From NCBI GenBank assembly GCA_000092065.1, contig CP000600.1: a stretch of DNA of 64,000 bases. The stretch is one strand, 5' to 3'. This DNA is from Ostreococcus lucimarinus. Taxonomy: Eukaryota. Shown one piece after another: positions 28,492-39,703 of this stretch; position 1 is the stretch's first letter; every line of letters begins with the position of its first letter. The translations under genes were made by a program, and so were the position numbers. The notes beneath the pieces are model-generated. The model was not told the origin of the DNA. It worked only from the letters and a program-made list of their open reading frames with translations, and did no database searches.

Positions 28492-31400
28492 TTAAGCAGT
28501 GGCTTCAACTCCAGCCTTAACATCGTTCGTCGCCTCCGGCGTGTTCGCCTCAGACGGCGGAACTAACTGCCAGAACTTGGGCAAATAGTTGGCCCAGTCA
28601 GCGAGGATAGCCTTCGCCTTCGGCGAGTTCGTCTTCTCGGCGTGCGCGGAGATGAGACCCTTGAGTTGGGCCTCACCCGCCGGCGTGATCACGCGCTGCA
28701 TGGCGACAATCTCGCCGTTCACCTTGGATTCGAACGTACCGTCTTCGTCGAGGAAGTAACCGATGCCACCAGTCATACCCGCGCCAACGTTGCGGCCAAC
28801 CTTGCCGATCGCGACGACGCAACCACCCGTCATGTATTCGCAGCAGTGGTCGCCAGTGCCTTCAACGACCGCTTCACCGAGCGAGTTACGGACGGCGAAG
28901 CGTTCACCAGCGCGACCGCTGATAAACACTTGACCACCAGTGGCGCCGTACAAGCACGCGTTACCCGCGATGCTCGCCGACTCCGGCGCGAACGGAGAGT
29001 TCGGAGGAGGCATGATGGCAATCTCACCGCCACTCATGCTCTTCGCCACGTAATCGTTCGCTTCACCCACAAGTCGCACTTTCAGGCCACCGACAACGAA
29101 AGCACCGAAAGATTGACCGCTGGAACCCTCGATGTCTAAGGTGAGAGAACCAGCGAAGCCATTGTCGCCGTACTTCTTGGCGATTTGACCGGCGACGCGC
29201 GCCGTCGCGCAACGGTCGACGTTGACAATCTCCACCTTCTTCGTGTACGTGCCTTCGGTTTCGATGCACTTTTGGACTTCCGGATCGCTAAGGATCTTGT
29301 CATCGAGAACGATACCGTCGTTGTGCACCGGTTGCGCGATGCGGTCCGAGGAAGCGCCAGCCTCGCCAGAGGACGTGGTGAGGAAGGACAAGTCGAGAGA
29401 CGAAGTCTTCGCCGGCGCCTTGTCAATTTGGCTGAGCAAGTCGTTGCGACCGATGATCTCATCGAGAGATCTGTAACCCATTTGGGCGAGGATCTCGCGC
29501 ACTTCTTGCGCGGCGTACATGAAGAAGTTGACAAGATCGCTTGGCGCACCGGGGAAGCGCGCGCGAAGCTCTTCGCGCTGGGACGCAACACCAACGGGGC
29601 AGTTGTTGGTGTGGCAAATACGAGCCATGACGCAGCCAGTGGCAATCATCGCAACGGTACCGAAACCGTATTCATCGGCACCCATGAGAGCGGTTTGGAT
29701 GACGTCAAGACCGGAGCGGCAGCCACCATCGGCGCGCAAGACGACGCGCTCGCGAAGGCCATTCTCAACGAGAGTTCTGTGCGATTCGACGAGACCCATC
29801 TCCAACGGACCACCGCAGTGCTTGATGGACGACAAAGGAGACGCGCCGGTACCACCATCGCCACCCGAAATTTGGATGATGTCGGCGTTCGCCTTGGCGA
29901 CGCCGGACGCCACCGTGCCGATGCCCGCTTGGGACACGAGCTTCACGGACACCTTCGAGTTCTTGTTGACCATGTGCAAGTCATAGATGAGCTGCGCGAG
30001 ATCCTCAATGGAGTAGATGTCGTGATGCGGCGGCGGGGAGATGAGCGGGACACCAGCCTTGGATCGGCGGAGCCAGGCAATGTACGGGGAAACCTTCTTA
30101 CCCGGAAGCTGACCACCTTCTCCCGGCTTGGCACCTTGCGCCACCTTGATTTCGGTCTGGTTGGCAGACATCAAGAACGACGTCGTGACACCAAAGCGAC
30201 CGGAAGCGACTTGCTTGATAGCGGAAGACGCGACGTCGCCATTCTCCATGCCTCGAAGGTACGGGAACGTTTCAGACTTGCCATCCGCGGTGGCGTCAGT
30301 GATGGTTTCGAATCGCTTCGGGTCTTCGCCACCTTCACCAGAGTTGGATTTACCACCGATGCGGTTCATCGCGATGGCGATAGATTCGTGGCACTCTTGG
30401 GAGATAGCACCGAGAGACATACCACCCGTGCAGAAGCGCGTGCAAATGTCAGCGACGGATTCGACCTCATCGACGGAGATCGGTTGGCGGTCAGACTTGA
30501 TTTCGAGTTGATCGCGCAAGCACGTGTACGGACGATCGTTGCGGTGCGCTTGGTAGGCGCTCCAGAACTCATCATTCTTTTCACCACCACCGAGGCCAAC
30601 AGCCTTGTGAAGAAGCTTAGACATCTCTTGGTTGTTGCCGTGGTATTCCAATCCCGGCTTGACTTGGAACATACCGCGCGCCTCAACCTTGGCCATCTCT
30701 TCAGCCTCACCCGGGAAAGCGGACTGGACAAACATGTGCGTCTCCGCGGCAACTTCATCCATGGTGAGACCACCGATGCGGGAAACGGTGCCCTTGAAGG
30801 CGGTGTTGATGACTTCAGGCCCAAGACCGTAGCACTCGAAAATTTGCGCGCCTTGGTACGAGGTGATCAAAGAGATACCCATCTTAGACAAGATCTTCTT
30901 GAGACCCTTGTTGAGGGCATTCTTGAAGTTGACTTGCACACCTTCCACAGAGACATCACCCATCTTACCGCGCTGGATGGCGGTCTCGACCTTCGGGGAC
31001 TTTCTCCATGACCGGCAGGTTTCCAAAGCCAACCACGGGCACACAGCGTGTGCGCCGAAACCAACCAAGGTGGCAATGTGGTGCGTGCTGAACGCCGAAG
31101 CAGACTCCACGACGATAGACGCGCGGGTTCGAAGACCTTGCGCGATCAAGTAGTGGTGCACGGTACCAACAGCGAGAAGCGAGGGAATCGCGGGCGAGTC
31201 CGGACCTTGATCCGGACGATCCGTGATGACGATGCACTCGCTGCCGGCGCGAATCGCCGCGGCGGCCTCTTCGCAAAGCTTGTCAAGGCCAGCCTTGAGG
31301 GCACCAGCGGCACCACCAGCGGCGTAACGCGCGGCAATAGTTTGCGTCTTCAGCTTCGGGTGGTTCTTAATGTGCTCCAACTCAGAGTCGAAGAGGACCG

Positions 31401-33258
31401 GGGAGTCGAGCATGACCGGCGGCGTTTCCTTGCCTTGCGTGTCGAGCAAGTTGCCCTTCGCACCAAGAGTCATGGCCAAGGACATGACGAGACCCTCGCG
31501 AAGAGGGTCGATGGCGGGGTTGGTAACTTGCGCGAAGCGTTGCTTGAAGTAGTCATAAAGCAAGCGCGGTCGGCCAGACAAGACGGGCATCGGGGTGTCG
31601 TCGCCCATCGACCAAGTGGGTTCGATGGCATCGGACGCCATCGATTCAATGATCATCGTGATGTCTTCGGCGGCGTAACCGGCGCGAGCTTGGCACTCGA
31701 TGAGTTGGATCGGGTCCAGTTGCGTCGCGCCAATGGGTTCGATGCCCTTGACGCGATCGATGGCCTTCATCCATTCGCCGTACGGGAGGCGCGCGGAGAC
31801 TTCCTTCGCGATTTCCGTATTTTCCTTGAACTCGCCCGTCTCCAAATCAGCGTAAATCATCATACCCGGGCCGAGACGGCCCTTGGAGACGACATTGGAC
31901 GCGTTGGACATGACATCACCGAGGACACCAACTTCCGAGGCGACGTAGATGTAATCATCGGACGTGCGCCAGAAGCGCGCCGGGCGCAACCCGTTGCGGT
32001 CGAGGCGGGCGCCGAGCTGCTTGCCATCGGAGAAGACGAGCAACGCTGGACCATCCCACGCTTCTTGCATCCCAGCGTAATAATCGTAGAAATCATGAAC
32101 TTCCGGGAACGTCGCATCGAGTTCGGGGTGGTTGCGGTGCGCTTCTGGCACAAGCAACATCATAGTCTCCGCCGGCGCGCGGCCGGTTCTCACCAGGAGC
32201 TCCGCGACTCTGTCGAGGTTGGCGGAATCGGAGGCAGCCGGATTACAGATCGGGCGGAATTCCGGTTCACGACCGCCCCAGATCGGGTTCTCCATATCAG
32301 CTTCCTTAGACGCCATCCAGTTCAAGTTACCTTGAAGGGTGTTGATCTCACCGTTGTGTCCCAAGAAACGCATCGGTTGCGAGAGTGGCCACTTCGGCGT
32401 CGTGTTCGTGGAGAAACGGCGGTGGTAAATCGAGAACTGCGACTCGTAGTCGGGGTCTTCCAAATCCTTGTAGAACTTGCCCAACACCGCGGATCGAAGC
32501 ATACCCTTGTACACAATCGTGCGGGAGCTCAAGGTGCAAATGTAGAAGCTCTCAGCTAACACGGCGTCGGAGCTCGCCGACTTTTCGCACGTCTTGCGCG
32601 CGATGAACAACTTGCGCTCGAGCTCTTCGCGTTCCAAGCCCGCCCCGTCGACGAGAATCTGTTCGTGCACCGGGCACGTCATCTTCGCGAGCGGACCGAC
32701 GACGGAGTTGTCCACCGGAACCGCACGCCAACCGAGCACCTTGAGGCCTTCGGCGACGCAGCTCGCCTCAAGAATCTTCTTCGCCTCAGCCGCCTTGGCA
32801 CCGTCGGTGGGCAACATAACCATACCGACCGCCGAGGAGCCTTCAGAGAATCCACTGATACCATTCGCCGCGCACCACTTGTCCAAAAGCTTCCACGGAA
32901 TGTGCGTCATGACACCGACACCATCACCAGAGTCGTTGTCCGCCGAGCACGCCCCGCGGTGCTCCATGCACCCGACAGCCATCAAGGAATCTTTCACAGT
33001 CTTGTGCGTGCGCTCACCCTTCAACGAAGCGATGAAACCGACCCCGCACGCATCATGCTCTTCCAAAAGCTGCGTGTTATCCACCGCACCGCCTTCATAC
33101 ACGGGCCAATCGCCGTACACCGACCCTCGCTCCGCCAGGCACACCGTCTTCGCGCGGTCGCGTCCCGGCACGCGCACCGTCGAGCACTTGGGCAACGCCG
33201 CGGGCTTACGCAACGTCACCGGGGACGGAGTAAACTTCTGCGCGATGTAAATGATCAC
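28492..33258 (-). CDS. GLU1: Ferredoxin-dependent glutamate synthase (Fd-GOGAT), single 1588-aa polypeptide.
   Basis: Amidotransferase N-terminus with catalytic Cys (..[10 protein letters not shown]), central domain, FMN/Fe-S domain (..GGTGASP.., Cys cluster) and C-terminal GXGXG beta-helix domain. The length is typical of the Fd type rather than the NADH type. About 70-aa presequence. Confidence 0.9.
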
Positions 33259-33962
33259 ACTCTACCGTCAGTCTTCTTCGTTCGACGTTCGATCGACGCC
33301 TTCGCGCCTCGCCTTCGGCCCGTCTTTTAAACGCGCATTCGCCGTTCGTGATTCGTCGCGGGGTGACTCTTGGAAAACAAGCCCTAACCCCCTTCGCGCG
33401 TCGTCGCGCGCGTCTTACGCACCGCTTGGTTCCCCAACGCGCGCATCGTGCCCGCGCTCGCGCTCGCGACGTTTTTGTTACGCATCGCCTGCGCGTGTGC
33501 ACCATTTTTCGCCCCCACGCGCGCGCGATGGCGACGCGCGCGCGCATCCGTCACCGCGACGGGGCTTACGCGCGCGCCCATCGCTTGCATCGCCTTCGCT
33601 CGCTCGCGCGCCCTTCCGGCGCGCGCACGATCGCGACGACGATCAAAGAATTAACCAACCGTTCGTTCGTCCGCTTCGCGCACGACCGATCGTCAAGTCG
33701 CGACGTCACCGGTCGCGTTCTGACGTCGCGCGCGCGCAATCGCGTCGCCTTCGCGAAACGGTTCCGGTCGCCGTCGTCGTTTTTTTCATCACAAAGGCGA
33801 ATTCGTGTCTTCTCTACGCGAGTTTTGCGATCGACCGCGGTGACGTCGCGCGAGTGGATCGAATGTCGGGTGTCTCGGCACCTCGCCTGTGTGACAGTGT
33901 GACACCTGCGACACGGCCAGCATTGCGCGTCGCGCGCGCGGTGGGACGCGGAAGCCGAAAGA

Positions 33963-36506
33963 ATGGAGTCGAAAAATAAAGCTTCGCGTGAACGGACGCG
34001 AACGCGGCGAGCGCGGCGAGCGTCGATTGGGTGTCGCGCTTTCGCGGCGTTGGCGAGTTGGTGCTGCGCGTCGCGGGCGCGAGGCGCGCACGGACGCTCG
34101 TGCGGGACGTGGGACGTCGCGCGGGTGGCGAACGTGGTGAATGGAATTGAAATTATGATCAGTGGGGGCTCGAGGGTGGAGGAAGCGCCGCGGACGGTGT
34201 GGGTGAATGGACGAGAGCGCTGCGCGAGCGAGTCGTTCTCGACGACGGCGACGACGGCGACATGCGTCATCGTCGAAGCGAACGAAAGAGCGCTGCGTGC
34301 GGCGAGAGATTTTGTGCGAGAGTTTACGTCAGTAGGTCGTGTGCAAGTGTGGGTGGCGAGTTTGCCGCCACGACTGATCGTGGACGCAACGACGAATACG
34401 CGGCACGCGTTGCGTACGATGGACGACGTCCTGAACGCGACGCGGACGGAGACGGAGACGAAAGAAGCGGATTTCAGGGTTGCTACCACCCGTGTTTACG
34501 CGTCATTCACCGTCGATGATCGCCAGTACGAAGAGAGCGCGGAGTATAAAGCCTTTGTCATCGCAACGAGTCACGCGCTCGATTCAACATCAAGGATGAG
34601 AACGCCAATCGATCCGCCTCGCGCGGGTGGCGCCGAAATATTTCGTCTCGACCTTGCAAACGCAACAAAGACGATCGAATTCATTGATCATCACCGAACG
34701 CGGTCGTTTTATCGCGTGACGTGTTGCGTTTCGGTTGGGCGATCGACTTTTGTACTATCCTTCGACGACGGCTCAGAGTGCACCGTGCGGTCGCCGAGTC
34801 GCGATCCAGTAAGACACTTGCGAGGAACAACCAATGATCCTTGCGTCGCCAAAGATCTCAGCCTACCTTATCCGGACGATATCACGTTAGAGTTTACGCC
34901 AAGCGAGCGAGCGACGTTCGACGAGTACCGAGGATTTTATCGTGGAAGTTACGAGAAAATGATGCGAGCCAAATCGAAATTTGCGCTCGCGGTGAGATTT
35001 GATGAAGGCCCGCGCTTGAGAGCTACGGCGCGTTTTCGAGGTGTATCCTCATTTCGAGATTGTGAACGGCGAAAGAGTCTCACCGTAGAGCTCGACGGGC
35101 GAGGCGTGCGCTTGATGCCTGGTTCCTTCGGGACAAAATTCCTGCTGATCAGCCTGTGCATCGATGATCGATACGTAAAGACACACCTCGTGTTGTCGAT
35201 GGCGAAGGCGCTCGGGACGTTTCCGCACGCTTTTCGATACGTCAGGTTAAAAATACGCACACGTGGTCAGAAAAGAGTGGAACATTCTGGCTTATACCTG
35301 CTCATGGATGACCCAAAGTCTTCGCTCGAGCGCGCGCACAATCAGCTCTCCGTCGTCGTGCGCCGACGGTTCGATCCAGCGAGGAAGAATTTTACCAGTT
35401 CCAAGGGTGTGCCCGAAGTGAAATCTTATCCAAATACAGATATTGAAGCAATCGCAGGTCGCGTACGATACGAACGCGTCGTTCTCGCAAGCGAGAGCTG
35501 CGAAGATAAAGCTTGTTTCGACGTTTTGAACAATTTGATCGACCTAGAAGGCTACCTTAGTTGGATGGCGCTGATGACGTGGGTCGAGTCGGGCGATTAC
35601 GTCGATGAACTCTGGTTATACGCATCAAATGAGAATGATGGGAAGCACCGTTTCAAAGTTCACGCGTGGGACCCTGACGATTCTTTTGAGTCTTGTCATC
35701 ACGGCGGCGAAGATGCAATCGTTGGGCTAGGCAATCTCCTGTACTGCGCGGAGGGCGCCATCGATCGCGTACTCGTACGATCTGAAAGCATGCGTGCTCA
35801 TTACATCAAGATTCTCAACGAAGTTCTTCGAGATAGACTAAACGAGCGAGCACTTCGGGAGATCGTTGATGCGCAAGAAGGACAAATTCGTCGGCTCCTC
35901 AACGACGATGACACCGCTCTCGGCCTGCTTGAGCTTCGGGAAATCGAGCCATCGATCGATAGCGCGACGGAGGCTGTGAGTGAAATCATCGGTTCATTGC
36001 GTTATTACAGAGACGTGATAAATTTTCGCAGACGTTCCTTGTTGCGCGACGCAGAAGCTTACGCATCATTCGACCCGAGCGCCACGGCGTGGACGTCGCA
36101 ACCAACGGCGGACGATTGCGACGATGGTGCGCCTACATTAGTGACGCAAGTACGAAGTTATGATAGGATTGATCAAGATATTTTGCTCAAAGTCAGTGGT
36201 AATGGTGGATCATACGCGCTGAACGTGTCTTTTGATCCCATCGTTGTCTACAATGGCTCGACGTACGTCGCCACGCGAGACGAGTTCGTGCTGGAGAGAT
36301 GGTCTTCTGAACAACACGAAAATGTCACACGCATGGCGATGTCATCGCCATGCGTGAGAACTTTCATCGGGGGTGGATACATCGTTCTGAGTTCCATTTG
36401 CGATGACTCAATCCCTCACATGTTTTCACTGCATCATCGATTCTGGCATGGTTTTGCCAACGCGTCTTCGCCGATGATAGTTAGTCGCCTACTCGGATGT
36501 GTGTGA
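33963..36506 (+). CDS. CotH-like protein (atypical-kinase fold) with a signal-peptide-like N-terminus. Tentative.
   Basis: Hydrophobic N-terminal segment (RAFAALASWCCASRARGA). The central region (VELDGRGVRLMPGSFGTKFLLISLCIDDRYVKTHLVLSMAKALG...YVRLKIRTRGQKRVEHSGLYLLMDDPKSSL; WDPDDSFESCHHGGEDAIVGLGNL) resembles CotH-domain proteins. Family assignment is from motif-level resemblance only. Confidence 0.45.
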   Translation: MESKNKASRERTRTRRARRASIGCRAFAALASWCCASRARGAHGRSCGTWDVARVANVVNGIEIMISGGSRVEEAPRTVWVNGRERCASESFSTTATTATCVIVEANERALRAARDFVREFTSVGRVQVWVASLPPRLIVDATTNTRHALRTMDDVLNATRTETETKEADFRVATTRVYASFTVDDRQYEESAEYKAFVIATSHALDSTSRMRTPIDPPRAGGAEIFRLDLANATKTIEFIDHHRTRSFYRVTCCVSVGRSTFVLSFDDGSECTVRSPSRDPVRHLRGTTNDPCVAKDLSLPYPDDITLEFTPSERATFDEYRGFYRGSYEKMMRAKSKFALAVRFDEGPRLRATARFRGVSSFRDCERRKSLTVELDGRGVRLMPGSFGTKFLLISLCIDDRYVKTHLVLSMAKALGTFPHAFRYVRLKIRTRGQKRVEHSGLYLLMDDPKSSLERAHNQLSVVVRRRFDPARKNFTSSKGVPEVKSYPNTDIEAIAGRVRYERVVLASESCEDKACFDVLNNLIDLEGYLSWMALMTWVESGDYVDELWLYASNENDGKHRFKVHAWDPDDSFESCHHGGEDAIVGLGNLLYCAEGAIDRVLVRSESMRAHYIKILNEVLRDRLNERALREIVDAQEGQIRRLLNDDDTALGLLELREIEPSIDSATEAVSEIIGSLRYYRDVINFRRRSLLRDAEAYASFDPSATAWTSQPTADDCDDGAPTLVTQVRSYDRIDQDILLKVSGNGGSYALNVSFDPIVVYNGSTYVATRDEFVLERWSSEQHENVTRMAMSSPCVRTFIGGGYIVLSSICDDSIPHMFSLHHRFWHGFANASSPMIVSRLLGCV

Positions 36507-36529
36507 TGCATCTAAGTTGTATAGCAATC

Positions 36530-37459
36530 CTACTGCGGCGCTTCTGGGACCGGCGCCGCGGATTTCCACTCTGGTTTGAGCCCCCACAAACCCATATTCG
36601 GCCCACGTCTCGTCAAAAGCGCGATTTCGCCCAAGTTTGTCTTTAGCCAATCCACCGGTTGCTTCGTCTCGAGGATCAGCTGCTTCAGACTCCAATACGG
36701 TTGTCGCTCGAACAACCCGAAGAGGACATTTTCCAGGGCCTTCTTTTCCATGCGTTCCTTCTTTTCCTTCTTATTTGATGCGGCGTCGGTGAACCGAATC
36801 AAGTTTCTCGCCTTGGGCAGCGGCGCGAAACGCATCTCAGACGAGCTCTGCGTTACTCTCGTCTTAGTCTGTGCCTGAATCATGCGATCTTTACTAACTC
36901 TATGGTAATCGACATCGTCGATCGATGTCGGACGCATGTCTAACTTCAAGTCCACTTTGGCCTCGAGGGTGATGTCCGCCTGCCCGCTCGTCGTCCCCTC
37001 GCGAACGTCGGAAAACACGCGCATCGGCATATCACTCGGCTGATTGGCTAAAATGTACTGCTTCGGCACGCCGTTCGCCTCTTTTCCGGTGAGTTCCATG
37101 ATCGCGTGCGTCATGTGCTTGGTTTTGTCCTCCTGGAACGGGTCGACGAAGACGCGAACTGTGCCGATGGCGGGCTCGTCCTCCTCCTTGGTGTCCGTAT
37201 CCATGTCATCATCATCCGCCATCGCCTGCTTACTCGCCGCCGCGGCTTCGTGGAACACTCGCGAAACAAATTTCGGCACCTTGACTAACCACGCGTTGCG
37301 ATCGCCCCGCGTGGTGTCGAGCGCGGTGGGCCACAAATACGCCTTGAGCGCGTCGACGACGGCTTCTGGAATGTCCGCCTCCTTAATCCCGAGAATCTTG
37401 CACGCCTGGTGTCGCCAGTGCGCGCGATACATCGACGGTGGACCATCCTTTCTCCACAC
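36530..37459 (-). CDS. GTF2F2: Transcription initiation factor IIF subunit beta (TFIIF-beta/RAP30), with an unusual ~45-aa N-terminal extension.
   Basis: ...NAWLVKVPKFVSRVF... matches the N-terminal VWLVKVPKYL motif. The C-terminal winged helix (KALENVLFGLFERQPYWSLKQLILETKQPVDWLKTNLGEIALL...WGLKPEWK) matches the RAP30 C-terminus (LFSAFEKHQYYNLKDLVDITKQPVVYLKEIL...WELKPEY). Confidence 0.75.
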   Translation of the reverse strand: MWRKDGPPSMYRAHWRHQACKILGIKEADIPEAVVDALKAYLWPTALDTTRGDRNAWLVKVPKFVSRVFHEAAAASKQAMADDDDMDTDTKEEDEPAIGTVRVFVDPFQEDKTKHMTHAIMELTGKEANGVPKQYILANQPSDMPMRVFSDVREGTTSGQADITLEAKVDLKLDMRPTSIDDVDYHRVSKDRMIQAQTKTRVTQSSSEMRFAPLPKARNLIRFTDAASNKKEKKERMEKKALENVLFGLFERQPYWSLKQLILETKQPVDWLKTNLGEIALLTRRGPNMGLWGLKPEWKSAAPVPEAPQ

Positions 37460-37792
37460 TGGATCGTCATACTTCTCCGCACCCGCCCTGTGATGGATGA
37501 AACGCGCGCGTCGCTCGGTCAGTCGGCCCGTTCGCCCGGCGAGATCGACTCAAAACTTCCCCATCATCGCCCTCAACCTCCCTCCCGCCGCGCGTCGCGA
37601 CCGCGCACTGCGCGCACACGTACCCTAATCGCTCGTGATTCAACAATCCGAGCACCTGTTTCACCTTCCCCGCCGCCGTTCGCTTCTTCGTCAACCAATC
37701 CTTGATCGCCTGTTGCAACTCCTCCGAGTTCGCCGGCAACTCCTCGTCCTGCGTTCGCCATCGCGGCATCGCGCGCGCGTCGTCAGTCACCA

Positions 37793-37824
<32 letters not shown>

Positions 37825-38288
37825 CCTCGCGTCCCGCGCGTCGTCCGTCTCGTCCCCGCGCGCGTTCGCCTCCGCCCATCCATCCGTCGTCGTCGTTTCC
37901 TCGTCGTTTCCTCCCCCCCCCGCGCCGTCGCCGACGTCCTCGCGCGCGCGCGTCGCACCTCTTCGCTCATCCTCGCGCCTCCGCGCCGTCGCGCGCCCGT
38001 CGTCGTGTGCGGCGGCGTCCCGCGCGCGCGCGACGTCGCCGCGCCGAAATCCTCGCCTCGGCGCCCGCCGCCGACGTCGTCGCTGTGTACCCATACACCC
38101 GTACCCTTGAGTCGTGAACCGTCGACAAAAAGCACGGTCGCGCATCCATCGATCGCGTCGATCGCTCGCGCGCGCGCGACCCGCGCGGCGTCGATCGCTC
38201 GCGCGCGCCCGACCTCGCGACGCGGGTCGACGACGATCGCGCGTCGCGATCCGACGAACCGGGCACCCTCGACCGCACCGCGCGACCG

Positions 38289-39344
38289 ATGGATCGACAC
38301 GCGTTCTTCGCCGCGCAGGCGTGGTTGACGGCGACGACGACGCGCGCGCGCGACGGCGCGCGTGCGAGCGACGACGGCGACGGCGACGACGGCGCGACGC
38401 GCGAGCGCGAGGAGATATACGCCGGGACGTGCTCGTTTTCGTGCGCGGACGAGGAGCAGTACGAGACGCGGGCGATCGCGACGATGGACGGCGACGACGC
38501 GGCGGACGACGGGGAGGACGACGCGGCGGACGACGGGGAGGAGGACGCGGCGGAGAATGGAAGAGGGCGACGGCGCGCGCGGCCGCGCGGCGCGCTGGCG
38601 AGAGATGCGCAGCACTTGACGTTCGGGACGACGGCGACGCTGCGCGACCCGGCGAGCGTTCGAGTGTCGTTCGCGGCGGTGAAAACGACGTTCGGAGCGA
38701 GCTCGGGAACGGGGTCGGGATCGACGAGCGTGGGGGATGCGACGACGGCGAACGCGCGCGCGCGAATTGAGCTCGAGTGTGAGCTCGACGGTCAGACGTA
38801 CAGGATGTCGACGCGAACGTGCCGCGCCGTCGTGAAATCGTTCAAGGAGACGGCGCGATCGGGGCACACCGAGGCTTTTCCGCGGTATTTGAGCGTCATT
38901 TTCCCTCACGTCACCATGAACGTATACTCTGCCGCGGAATCCGACGCTTCGTGGGACGGTTTGCGCGCGCTCGCGCGCGCTTTGACGGACCCCGCGCTCG
39001 CGACGACGAAGACGACGACGACGACGAGCGAAAACTACGACGACGGACACGACACCGACCCCGACGGAAACGATCCGAGTCCAGTGGGCGTGGGGAAGCC
39101 GAATCCTCTTCCACGTTCGATCGGGAACGAGATCGATCTCGAGACTGTCGCGCTCGCGGACGCCGACGCCTTTGCCGCGCAGCGTTTCGCCGCCGACGCT
39201 CTCTGCGACGCCGCTCGGCTCCTCGTCGCCGACGGCGATCCGTGGCGAACGCTTTCGCACGACTTGCTCGCTCACGGCGTGCGCGACGTTTTCGCGGACG
39301 ATCCATCCGCGTACGCCGGGCGCGCTTTTCCAGGCGACAAGTAA
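38289..39344 (+). CDS. Hypothetical protein of 351 aa with an acidic N-terminal third and a Thr-rich linker.
   Basis: Balanced composition in the core (IELECELDGQTYRMSTRTCRAVVKSFKETARSGHTEAFPRYLSVIFPHVTMNVYSAAESDASWDG). The overlapping minus-strand 629-aa ORF is Arg-rich and was rejected. No family recognised. Confidence 0.4.
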   Translation: MDRHAFFAAQAWLTATTTRARDGARASDDGDGDDGATREREEIYAGTCSFSCADEEQYETRAIATMDGDDAADDGEDDAADDGEEDAAENGRGRRRARPRGALARDAQHLTFGTTATLRDPASVRVSFAAVKTTFGASSGTGSGSTSVGDATTANARARIELECELDGQTYRMSTRTCRAVVKSFKETARSGHTEAFPRYLSVIFPHVTMNVYSAAESDASWDGLRALARALTDPALATTKTTTTTSENYDDGHDTDPDGNDPSPVGVGKPNPLPRSIGNEIDLETVALADADAFAAQRFAADALCDAARLLVADGDPWRTLSHDLLAHGVRDVFADDPSAYAGRAFPGDK

Positions 39345-39703
39345 AAGCGTGGACATCCAACCGGGCGATGCGAATCGTCGTATGCGTAAACAGTATGCTC
39401 ATGCGAATCGACAGGGGAGGGCGCCAGCGTGGTTGTCGCGAGGCGCGCCCGCGCCCGTACACCGAGTCGTGCGCTTTCGTCCTGTCGGCGATCGCGCGCG
39501 CGCGGCGCCGAGCGCTCGATCGCGAACGTTCATCCGTAAACGTCTCGATCGCACGCGCGCGCGTCGCGGACGGACGCGTCGTCGCGCGAGCCAGGCGACG
39601 CGCAAAGATCGACGCTCACGCGTTTTCACCCTTCGCGCGTCGTTCACGCGTTTTCCGCGCTTGACGACGCCGCGCGCATCGCACGCGCGCGCATCGACGC
39701 GAA

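Follow-up and report, generated by a model that had tools for sequence, protein, structure and literature searches.

A CotH-family protein with retained catalytic aspartates and a probable secretory destination in Ostreococcus lucimarinus and related picoalgae

In a 64,000-nucleotide stretch of Ostreococcus lucimarinus DNA (contig CP000600.1 of GenBank assembly GCA_000092065.1; the whole stretch is referred to here as the window), an uninterrupted, intron-free open reading frame (ORF) at positions 33963..36506 of the plus strand encodes an 847-residue protein which, judged by its sequence profile and predicted structure, is a member of the CotH family and has the CotH fold. The equivalents of both catalytic aspartates of Bacillus CotH are retained, and we lean, with little more than even confidence, toward the view that the protein is a catalytically competent CotH atypical kinase which, in this Mamiellophyceae picoalga, would act extracellularly or within the secretory-pathway lumen. 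The complete coding sequence, including the stop codon, is delimited by the ORF list, the ortholog alignment and the Pfam CotH match; it begins with ATG, and an in-frame stop is located 20 codons upstream with no earlier ATG in between. An initial annotation of this DNA had placed the gene at the same coordinates and on the same strand, and the ORF list bears this out.

Domain organization and fold

The core of the protein had been likened in the initial annotation to CotH-family atypical kinases with a kinase-like fold. In hidden Markov model (HMM) searches, the single Pfam match of the protein was to CotH (PF08757; E = 1.1e-57, 196.4 bits, cut-off 23.8), spanning residues 357–693 and profile positions 2–322 of 322, and this full-length match confirms the family resemblance. 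A search of NCBIfam with the protein gave no match, and neither phmmer with the window protein nor a profile of 11 orthologs found a match among the Protein Data Bank (PDB) sequences; PDB entry 5jd9 was reached (E = 2.6e-7) by a 40-sequence profile that included bacterial relatives. The AlphaFold2 model, computed with 15 homologs, had a mean predicted local distance difference test score (pLDDT) of 69.6 and a predicted TM-score (pTM) of 0.60, and pLDDT values in the kinase core were mostly 70–90. When this model was compared with the PDB using Foldseek, the only significant matches were the structures of the Bacillus cereus CotH kinase, 5jd9 and 5jda (E = 1e-10, probability 1.00, target-normalized TM-score 0.72). 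The model thus superposes on B. cereus CotH, in agreement with the proposed kinase-like fold.

The CotH kinase domain (residues 357–693, 35031..36041, plus strand, as are all features of the protein given below) is part of a structural core of about residues 303–700 that was delimited with Pfam and Foldseek. It is preceded by two predicted domains. The first, recognized from the secondary structure of the model, is a small all-beta module (residues 45–105, 34095..34277) that starts near the first conserved cysteine, C47; some Myxococcota relatives align in this zone, from residue ∼55–85 onward. The second is an alpha/beta domain (residues 106–280, 34278..34802) with a tentatively assigned vWA-like fold. 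It lacks a metal ion-dependent adhesion site (MIDAS) of the DxSxS type, this motif being absent from the entire protein, and no Pfam VWA match was found at E ≤ 1. The kinase domain is followed by a C-terminal beta-sandwich (residues 715–847, 36105..36503) with strands in the model between residues 725 and 842 and pLDDT values mostly of 75–90. Among the best 150 representatives in the profile search, only algal-type proteins match beyond profile position ∼715. The conserved elements of this domain are the sequon N754-x-S/T, cysteines 797, 813, and 846, and the motif SLHHRFWH (residues 822–829, 36426–36449), which is invariant in the 11 close orthologs and takes the form S-x-x-H-x-x-W-(H/L)-P-F in distant ones.

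Conservation of the active site

Two motifs of the kinase core were located in the translation and by profile alignment to 5jd9: GDYVDE (residues 544–549, 35592..35609) and WDPDD (residues 569–573, 35667..35681). D545 from the first motif aligns with D224 of B. cereus CotH and D570 from the second motif with D247; with a constant four-residue offset, these correspond to the catalytic D228 and to D251 of Bacillus subtilis CotH, respectively. A metal-binding role of D251 was reportedly described by Nguyen et al. in 2016. The substitutions D228Q and D251A inactivate the B. subtilis enzyme (PMC7821199), and the equivalents of both aspartates are retained in the algal protein. On this basis the residues for catalysis are in place, and the protein may well be active.

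The comparison was extended to 65 sequences, 18 algal and 47 from bacterial relatives, and G360, R370, D401, G443, Y445, R467, R468, D545, D548, E549, and E597 were found to be invariant in all of them. All 18 algal sequences also share the WDxDD..CH block with D570; the bacterial ones were found with a pattern that contains this block (see below), so that it counts as evidence for the algal sequences only. The catalytic loop reads D-Y-V-D-E in the algal and bacterial subfamily versus D-G-F-V-H-N in B. cereus, and is followed by a two-residue shift.

This conservation bears on the possibility that the protein is a non-catalytic component of the cell surface or matrix, with the CotH fold and the vWA-like domain serving as binding modules, like the GRP78-binding invasins of Mucorales. 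CotH proteins of Mucorales are indeed signal-peptide-bearing extracellular ligands (PMC9973265), a vWA-like domain, though tentative here, is of a kind common in adhesins, and the gene diverges fast. Such a role is nevertheless improbable in our view: D545, D548, E549, R467, R468, and the other residues listed above are identical in all 65 sequences from algae and several bacterial phyla, which is the pattern expected from selection on catalysis. The vWA-like domain, in addition, has no MIDAS, and the window protein contains neither QTNDGAY, the GRP78-binding motif of Mucorales (PMC9973265), nor TNDG, and it has no glycosylphosphatidylinositol (GPI)-type tail or transmembrane anchor.

Algal orthologs and conserved gene order

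Orthologs that align end to end with the window protein are present in marine metagenomes (47–54% identity, 818–974 residues). The representative of one ortholog cluster (P0009) is 49% identical to it over the full length, and the same cluster includes a protein of Ostreococcus tauri (XP_003083017.2, also CEG02107.1 and UniProt A0A096PBS5) that is already named 'Spore coat protein CotH', an annotation which is automatic only. In architecture, the O. tauri protein is like the window protein, and the hydrophobic stretch of its signal-like N-terminus is the stronger of the two. Together with the eukaryotic neighbors of the gene, this ortholog corroborates the algal setting assumed in the initial annotation. 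Our literature searches turned up no publication dealing with CotH in Ostreococcus or any other green alga. A second homolog search, with the ortholog alignment, brought in a single further sequence, a 400-residue fragment that matches the window protein exactly, and did not extend the set to other lineages. Three long proteins of 1175–1257 residues (P0014–P0016) were considered as paralogs; this was rejected for P0015, which is encoded head-to-head with Fd-GOGAT and is a distant ortholog, and P0014 and P0016 group with P0015 in the neighbor-joining tree described below. No second CotH copy was found within the window.

In the window, the CotH gene is located between the divergently transcribed gene for Fd-GOGAT and the convergent gene for TFIIF-beta. 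The same order of the three genes recurs in loci L001, L003, and L063, and the head-to-head Fd-GOGAT/CotH pair is also present in L062, so that the pair is found in five Mamiellophyceae-type loci including the window, in four of which (window, L001, L003, and L063) TFIIF-beta is convergent downstream. From GC content alone, which is 47% for L063 and 69% for L062, we infer that the former is Bathycoccus-like and the latter Micromonas-like. The three genes have diverged at very different rates, as seen from the identity of the window proteins to their L001 counterparts: 52.7% in CotH, against 72% in TFIIF-beta and 94.5% in Fd-GOGAT.

Because the gene order recurs across these loci, the CotH gene is, on the strength of synteny, an old resident of Mamiellophyceae genomes and not contamination. 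The idea that the gene is not algal and stems from bacterial contamination or a chimeric assembly could appeal to the bacterial nature of the nearest non-algal relatives and to a database entry filed under 'bacterium' (MDA9627201.1). It has, however, next to no chance of being correct and is refuted in practice by synteny: the gene is flanked by Fd-GOGAT and the eukaryote-only TFIIF-beta, its base composition is like that of the rest of the window, four further Mamiellophyceae-type genomes, assembled independently, show the same gene order, an ortholog is present in the O. tauri reference genome, and the bacterial relatives are only 25–38% identical.

The entry MDA9627201.1 is a partial copy of the window protein, filed as 'CotH kinase family protein [bacterium]', and apparently derives from an algal contig that was mis-binned into a bacterial metagenome-assembled genome (MAG). 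Database copies of the window protein that were produced by prokaryotic gene callers (cluster P0002) are 793 residues long and apparently start at V55 (GTG).

N-terminal region and secretory routing

The window protein starts with an arginine-rich head of 25 residues, MESKNKASRERTRTRRARRASIGCR, with nine arginines and a net charge of +8. This is followed by 12 uncharged residues, AFAALASWCCAS (residues 26–37), for which the best 10-residue mean on the Kyte–Doolittle (KD) scale is 1.71, and then by RARGAHGRSC, which adds three more arginines before C47. On the basis of hydropathy and the orthologs, residues 1–44 (33963..34094) are a candidate signal peptide or signal anchor that is weak in this species; the pLDDT in this region is below 30.

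In all 17 other algal orthologs, a clear hydrophobic stretch is located at the same position, with best 10-residue KD means of 2.2–3.4. Some of these N-termini are textbook signal peptides (MRSRGILALIAIVGAATVVSASSA/DPD, MRALLLWCLAATTSALA, and MRLGVWPVLLLSAVA), while others consist of a long basic head and 19–22 hydrophobic residues, an arrangement that would fit a type II signal anchor equally well. One ortholog (P0013) is a truncated gene call, and an upstream in-frame ATG adds MTTMTRVATTILHVILFALSACS, giving a hydrophobic N-terminus. The hydrophobic, signal-peptide-like N-terminus noted in the initial annotation is therefore strong in 17 of 17 other orthologs and only weak in the window protein itself.

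Further features are in line with passage through the secretory pathway. The 11 close orthologs have 16 conserved cysteines C-terminal to the signal region. In the kinase core, all algal sequences have the four cysteines C367, C399, C578, and C595. The bacterial sequences have them too, independently for C367, C399, and C595 but through the search pattern for C578; in B. cereus CotH, the place of C399 is taken by Phe. The sequon N754-x-S/T is retained in 11 of 11 orthologs and is the sole N-glycosylation sequon common to all of them. We found no internal transmembrane segment, hydrophobic C-terminal tail, or KDEL-type ending in the window protein: no 19-residue segment has a KD mean above 1.6, and the C-terminus is ...SRLLGCV. 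The fast divergence of CotH may be taken as a further sign of secretion, since secreted proteins tend to evolve fast. Given the hydrophobic N-termini of the orthologs, the conserved cysteines, the sequon, and the lipobox-bearing relatives described below, we regard routing into the secretory pathway as probable. The earlier suggestion that the protein is a candidate secreted or surface protein with a kinase fold is supported by the same ortholog N-termini, cysteines, and sequon and by the CotH fold, with the location remaining a prediction.

The N-terminus can also be read differently, as an organellar transit peptide or as no signal at all, in which case the protein would be an intracellular CotH kinase with cytosolic, plastid, or mitochondrial substrates. 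Residues 11–50 contain no acidic residue and are rich in Arg, Ala, and Ser, and the hydrophobic stretch is weak and only 12 residues long; the head-to-head arrangement with Fd-GOGAT, a plastid enzyme, in five loci could hint at co-regulation, and CotH of Bacillus works inside the mother cell (PMC7821199). Orthologs with classical signal peptides at the same position speak against this reading, and the 16 conserved cysteines, the sequon, and the lipoprotein relatives fit poorly with a reducing compartment, so we consider an intracellular kinase quite improbable.

Bacterial relatives and possible origin

When 1.84 billion representative proteins were searched with a profile HMM of the orthologs, 644 proteins were matched at E ≤ 1e-3; given that these are the only matches, the profile reaches a CotH subgroup and not all CotH proteins. 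After the algal matches come proteins of 650–750 residues, one of which is from a Myxococcales MAG. To collect bacterial relatives, WDxDDx4CHxxGxxA was turned into a degenerate DNA pattern and sought in 185,579 species genomes of bacteria and archaea. This gave 57 loci, 54 of which were aligned by tblastn, all with E < 1e-14. The loci are mostly from Myxococcota (the marine Enhygromyxa salina, Nannocystaceae, Polyangiales, Kofleriaceae, and Bradymonadia), and a few are from outside this phylum (Marinacidobacterales, Ilumatobacter, and others). Their proteins are 25–38% identical to the window protein, and some of the alignments reach back to residue ∼55–85. Lipobox-like starts (L-x-G/A-C) were present in seven of eight aligned relatives, for example ...VGCGD, ...AACGE, and ...GCSDD, and by these signals the Myxococcota-type relatives look extracytoplasmic.

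The nearest non-algal relatives are lipoprotein-type CotH proteins, mostly of Myxococcota (for example NUN14378.1 from a Myxococcales MAG and, from Enhygromyxa salina, loci L006 and L013). They share with the algal proteins the kinase core and the segment that precedes it, C367, C399, and C595, and the D-x-V/I-D-E loop. They differ in their signal, which is that of a bacterial lipoprotein and not of the eukaryotic type, and in lacking the algal C-terminal beta domain. A midpoint-rooted neighbor-joining tree groups the 18 algal sequences in a single clade next to Myxococcota sequences; this tree is crude, as it has no support values and no fungal or Bacillus sequences, and its bacterial sample is biased by the search pattern. 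The grouping suggests, and does not prove, gene transfer between bacteria and an ancestor of Mamiellophyceae.

The loci around the bacterial homologs contain no recurring neighbor gene: apart from CotH genes, none was found in more than 5 of 53 loci, and therefore no operon provides a clue to the substrate. One ORF cluster was present in 14 bacterial loci, but the example listed is on the opposite strand and overlaps CotH, and the cluster was taken for a shadow ORF. No relative was found on viral contigs, and an origin from prasinoviruses is therefore without support.

A more specific scenario is that a gene for a disulfide-bonded, extracytoplasmic vWA-CotH lipoprotein passed from a marine, Myxococcota-like bacterial donor to the ancestor of Ostreococcus, Bathycoccus, and Micromonas, gained a eukaryotic signal and the C-terminal domain, and now encodes a secretory kinase. 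The substrates of this kinase would be proteins or glycans that are secreted or exposed at the cell surface, and it would be an independent green-lineage analog of Fam20C. We put this scenario forward tentatively and give it a rather small chance of being right in full. The link to lipoproteins, mostly of Myxococcota, nonetheless offers a testable case of gene transfer from a bacterium to an alga, and a secretory kinase of bacterial origin, if that is what the protein is, would be a first entry point to the study of extracellular phosphorylation in green algae.

Comparison with known systems and proposed function

In the structural alignment, Bacillus CotH is only 15–18% identical to the algal protein, which is more than twice as long and additionally comprises the signal-like N-terminus, the vWA-like domain, and the C-terminal beta domain. 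The four invariant core cysteines are a further difference from B. cereus CotH; at the one comparable position, C399, the latter has Phe, as noted above. The setting also differs in that the alga has no known spores, mother-cell cytoplasm, or cotB/cotG-like neighbors, none of the latter being found among the window ORFs. No spore stage is known for these picoalgae, and a link to a spore coat, from which the name CotH stems, does not define the Pfam family.

The invasins of Mucorales provide a precedent for eukaryotic CotH-domain proteins that bear signal peptides and are predicted to be extracellular (PMC9973265). Some of them have a GPI anchor. They form families of 15–17 members (CotH2 and CotH3 of R. 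delemar, and 17 CotH proteins of M. lusitanicus), versus one copy per algal locus observed here, and their flanking domains differ from those of the algal protein. The similarity of algal CotH to the animal kinases Fam20C, Fam20B, and Four-jointed is structural and only at the general kinase-like level, and the window protein has no Fam20 match in Pfam; it may resemble these secretory-pathway kinases in its mode of action, but it lies outside the Fam20 family. We know of no Fam20-type enzyme in green algae.

If the protein is a secretory CotH kinase, the N-terminal signal sequence would take it into the endoplasmic reticulum (ER), where up to eight disulfides and N-glycans could form. The CotH core would bind ATP and a divalent metal through D570 of WDPDD, and D545 of GDYVDE would serve as the catalytic base for transfer of the gamma-phosphate to Ser/Thr residues of secreted or surface proteins. 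Substrates or partners may dock on the two flanking domains, the vWA-like one on the N-terminal side and the algal-specific beta domain at the C-terminus.

The acceptor might instead be a glycan, a lipid, or a small molecule, which would make the protein a secretory phosphotransferase with the same fold and location as the proposed protein kinase. Among kinases of the secretory pathway, Fam20B phosphorylates xylose. The sequence, however, bears no sign of a sugar- or lipid-binding site, and vWA-like folds are generally known to mediate mostly protein–protein contacts. Among CotH proteins, the single one whose activity is known phosphorylates proteins on Ser/Thr (PMC7821199). A non-protein acceptor is thus unlikely, though it deserves to be kept in view.

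Several observations weigh against a catalytically competent secretory kinase. Taken alone, the N-terminus of the window protein would be a poor or marginal signal peptide, and a prediction program might assign it to mitochondria or plastids or see no signal in it. At the position of N229, the catalytic-loop Asn of B. cereus CotH, the subfamily does not have Asn and there is a two-residue insertion with D548 and E549; the Asn is apparently replaced by acidic residues, and the metal-binding geometry would therefore differ from that of the solved enzyme. The periplasm and the cell exterior are generally held to lack ATP, and as the bacterial relatives face such an ATP-poor compartment, use of ATP by the subfamily is uncertain. 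The confidence of the structural model is moderate. We found no report in the literature on activity, expression, or localization for this algal CotH clade. Finally, CotH proteins of Mucorales are host-binding invasins for which kinase activity has not been demonstrated as needed (PMC9973265).

Assignment to the CotH family is not new, as both the O. tauri ortholog and the partial copy of the window protein were already labeled CotH. No earlier description seems to exist of the domain architecture, of the cysteine-bearing subfamily centered on Myxococcota, or of the deep synteny with Fd-GOGAT. For annotation, the outcome is a confident label of 'CotH-family kinase, secretory-type'. CotH proteins are known from work on Bacillus spores and on virulence factors of Mucorales, and the gene described here has kept both its position across Mamiellophyceae-type genomes and its catalytic residues. 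As a simple cell that is amenable to genetic manipulation, O. tauri could reveal the role of an extracellular CotH.

Neighboring genes

The ORF for Fd-GOGAT is located at 28492..33258 on the minus strand, divergent from CotH, and contains the Pfam domains GATase_2, Glu_syn_central, Glu_synthase, and GXGXG. The ORF for TFIIF-beta is located at 36530..37459, also on the minus strand and convergent with CotH, and matches TFIIF_beta and TFIIF_beta_N (PF02270 and PF17683). The CotH stop codon, TGA, ends at 36506 and the reverse-strand stop codon of TFIIF-beta, TAG, begins at 36530. In the ORF list and the sequence, the convergent stop codons are thus separated by a spacer of 23 bp (36507..36529), exactly the distance given in the initial annotation.

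On the other side, the initial annotation had described an upstream region of ∼700 bp shared by the divergent CotH and Fd-GOGAT genes. The gap between the Fd-GOGAT ORF and the CotH ATG is indeed 704 bp (33259..33962). In the Fd-GOGAT ORF, there is no ATG between the upstream stop and the mature N-terminal Cys (CGVGFIA), and the same is the case in L001; L003, unlike these two, has an in-frame ATG (MTFSRSLAQAQTPGF...). Because the ORF lacks an ATG before the mature Cys, the true start of Fd-GOGAT is probably in a small upstream exon within the 704-bp gap, and the shared promoter region is therefore probably shorter than the gap. One candidate for such a mini-exon has its ATG at 33446..33444 (minus strand) and encodes MRALGNQA, with GTGCGT as the donor and gcgcag/AAGTTT near 33238 as the acceptor; with this exon as the start of Fd-GOGAT, the two divergent genes would be only about 516 bp apart instead of 704 bp. 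Past TFIIF-beta, at 37467–39356, the GC content is ∼68% and two long Arg/Ala-rich ORFs of 629 residues (minus strand) and 351 residues (plus strand) overlap, of which at most one can be real.

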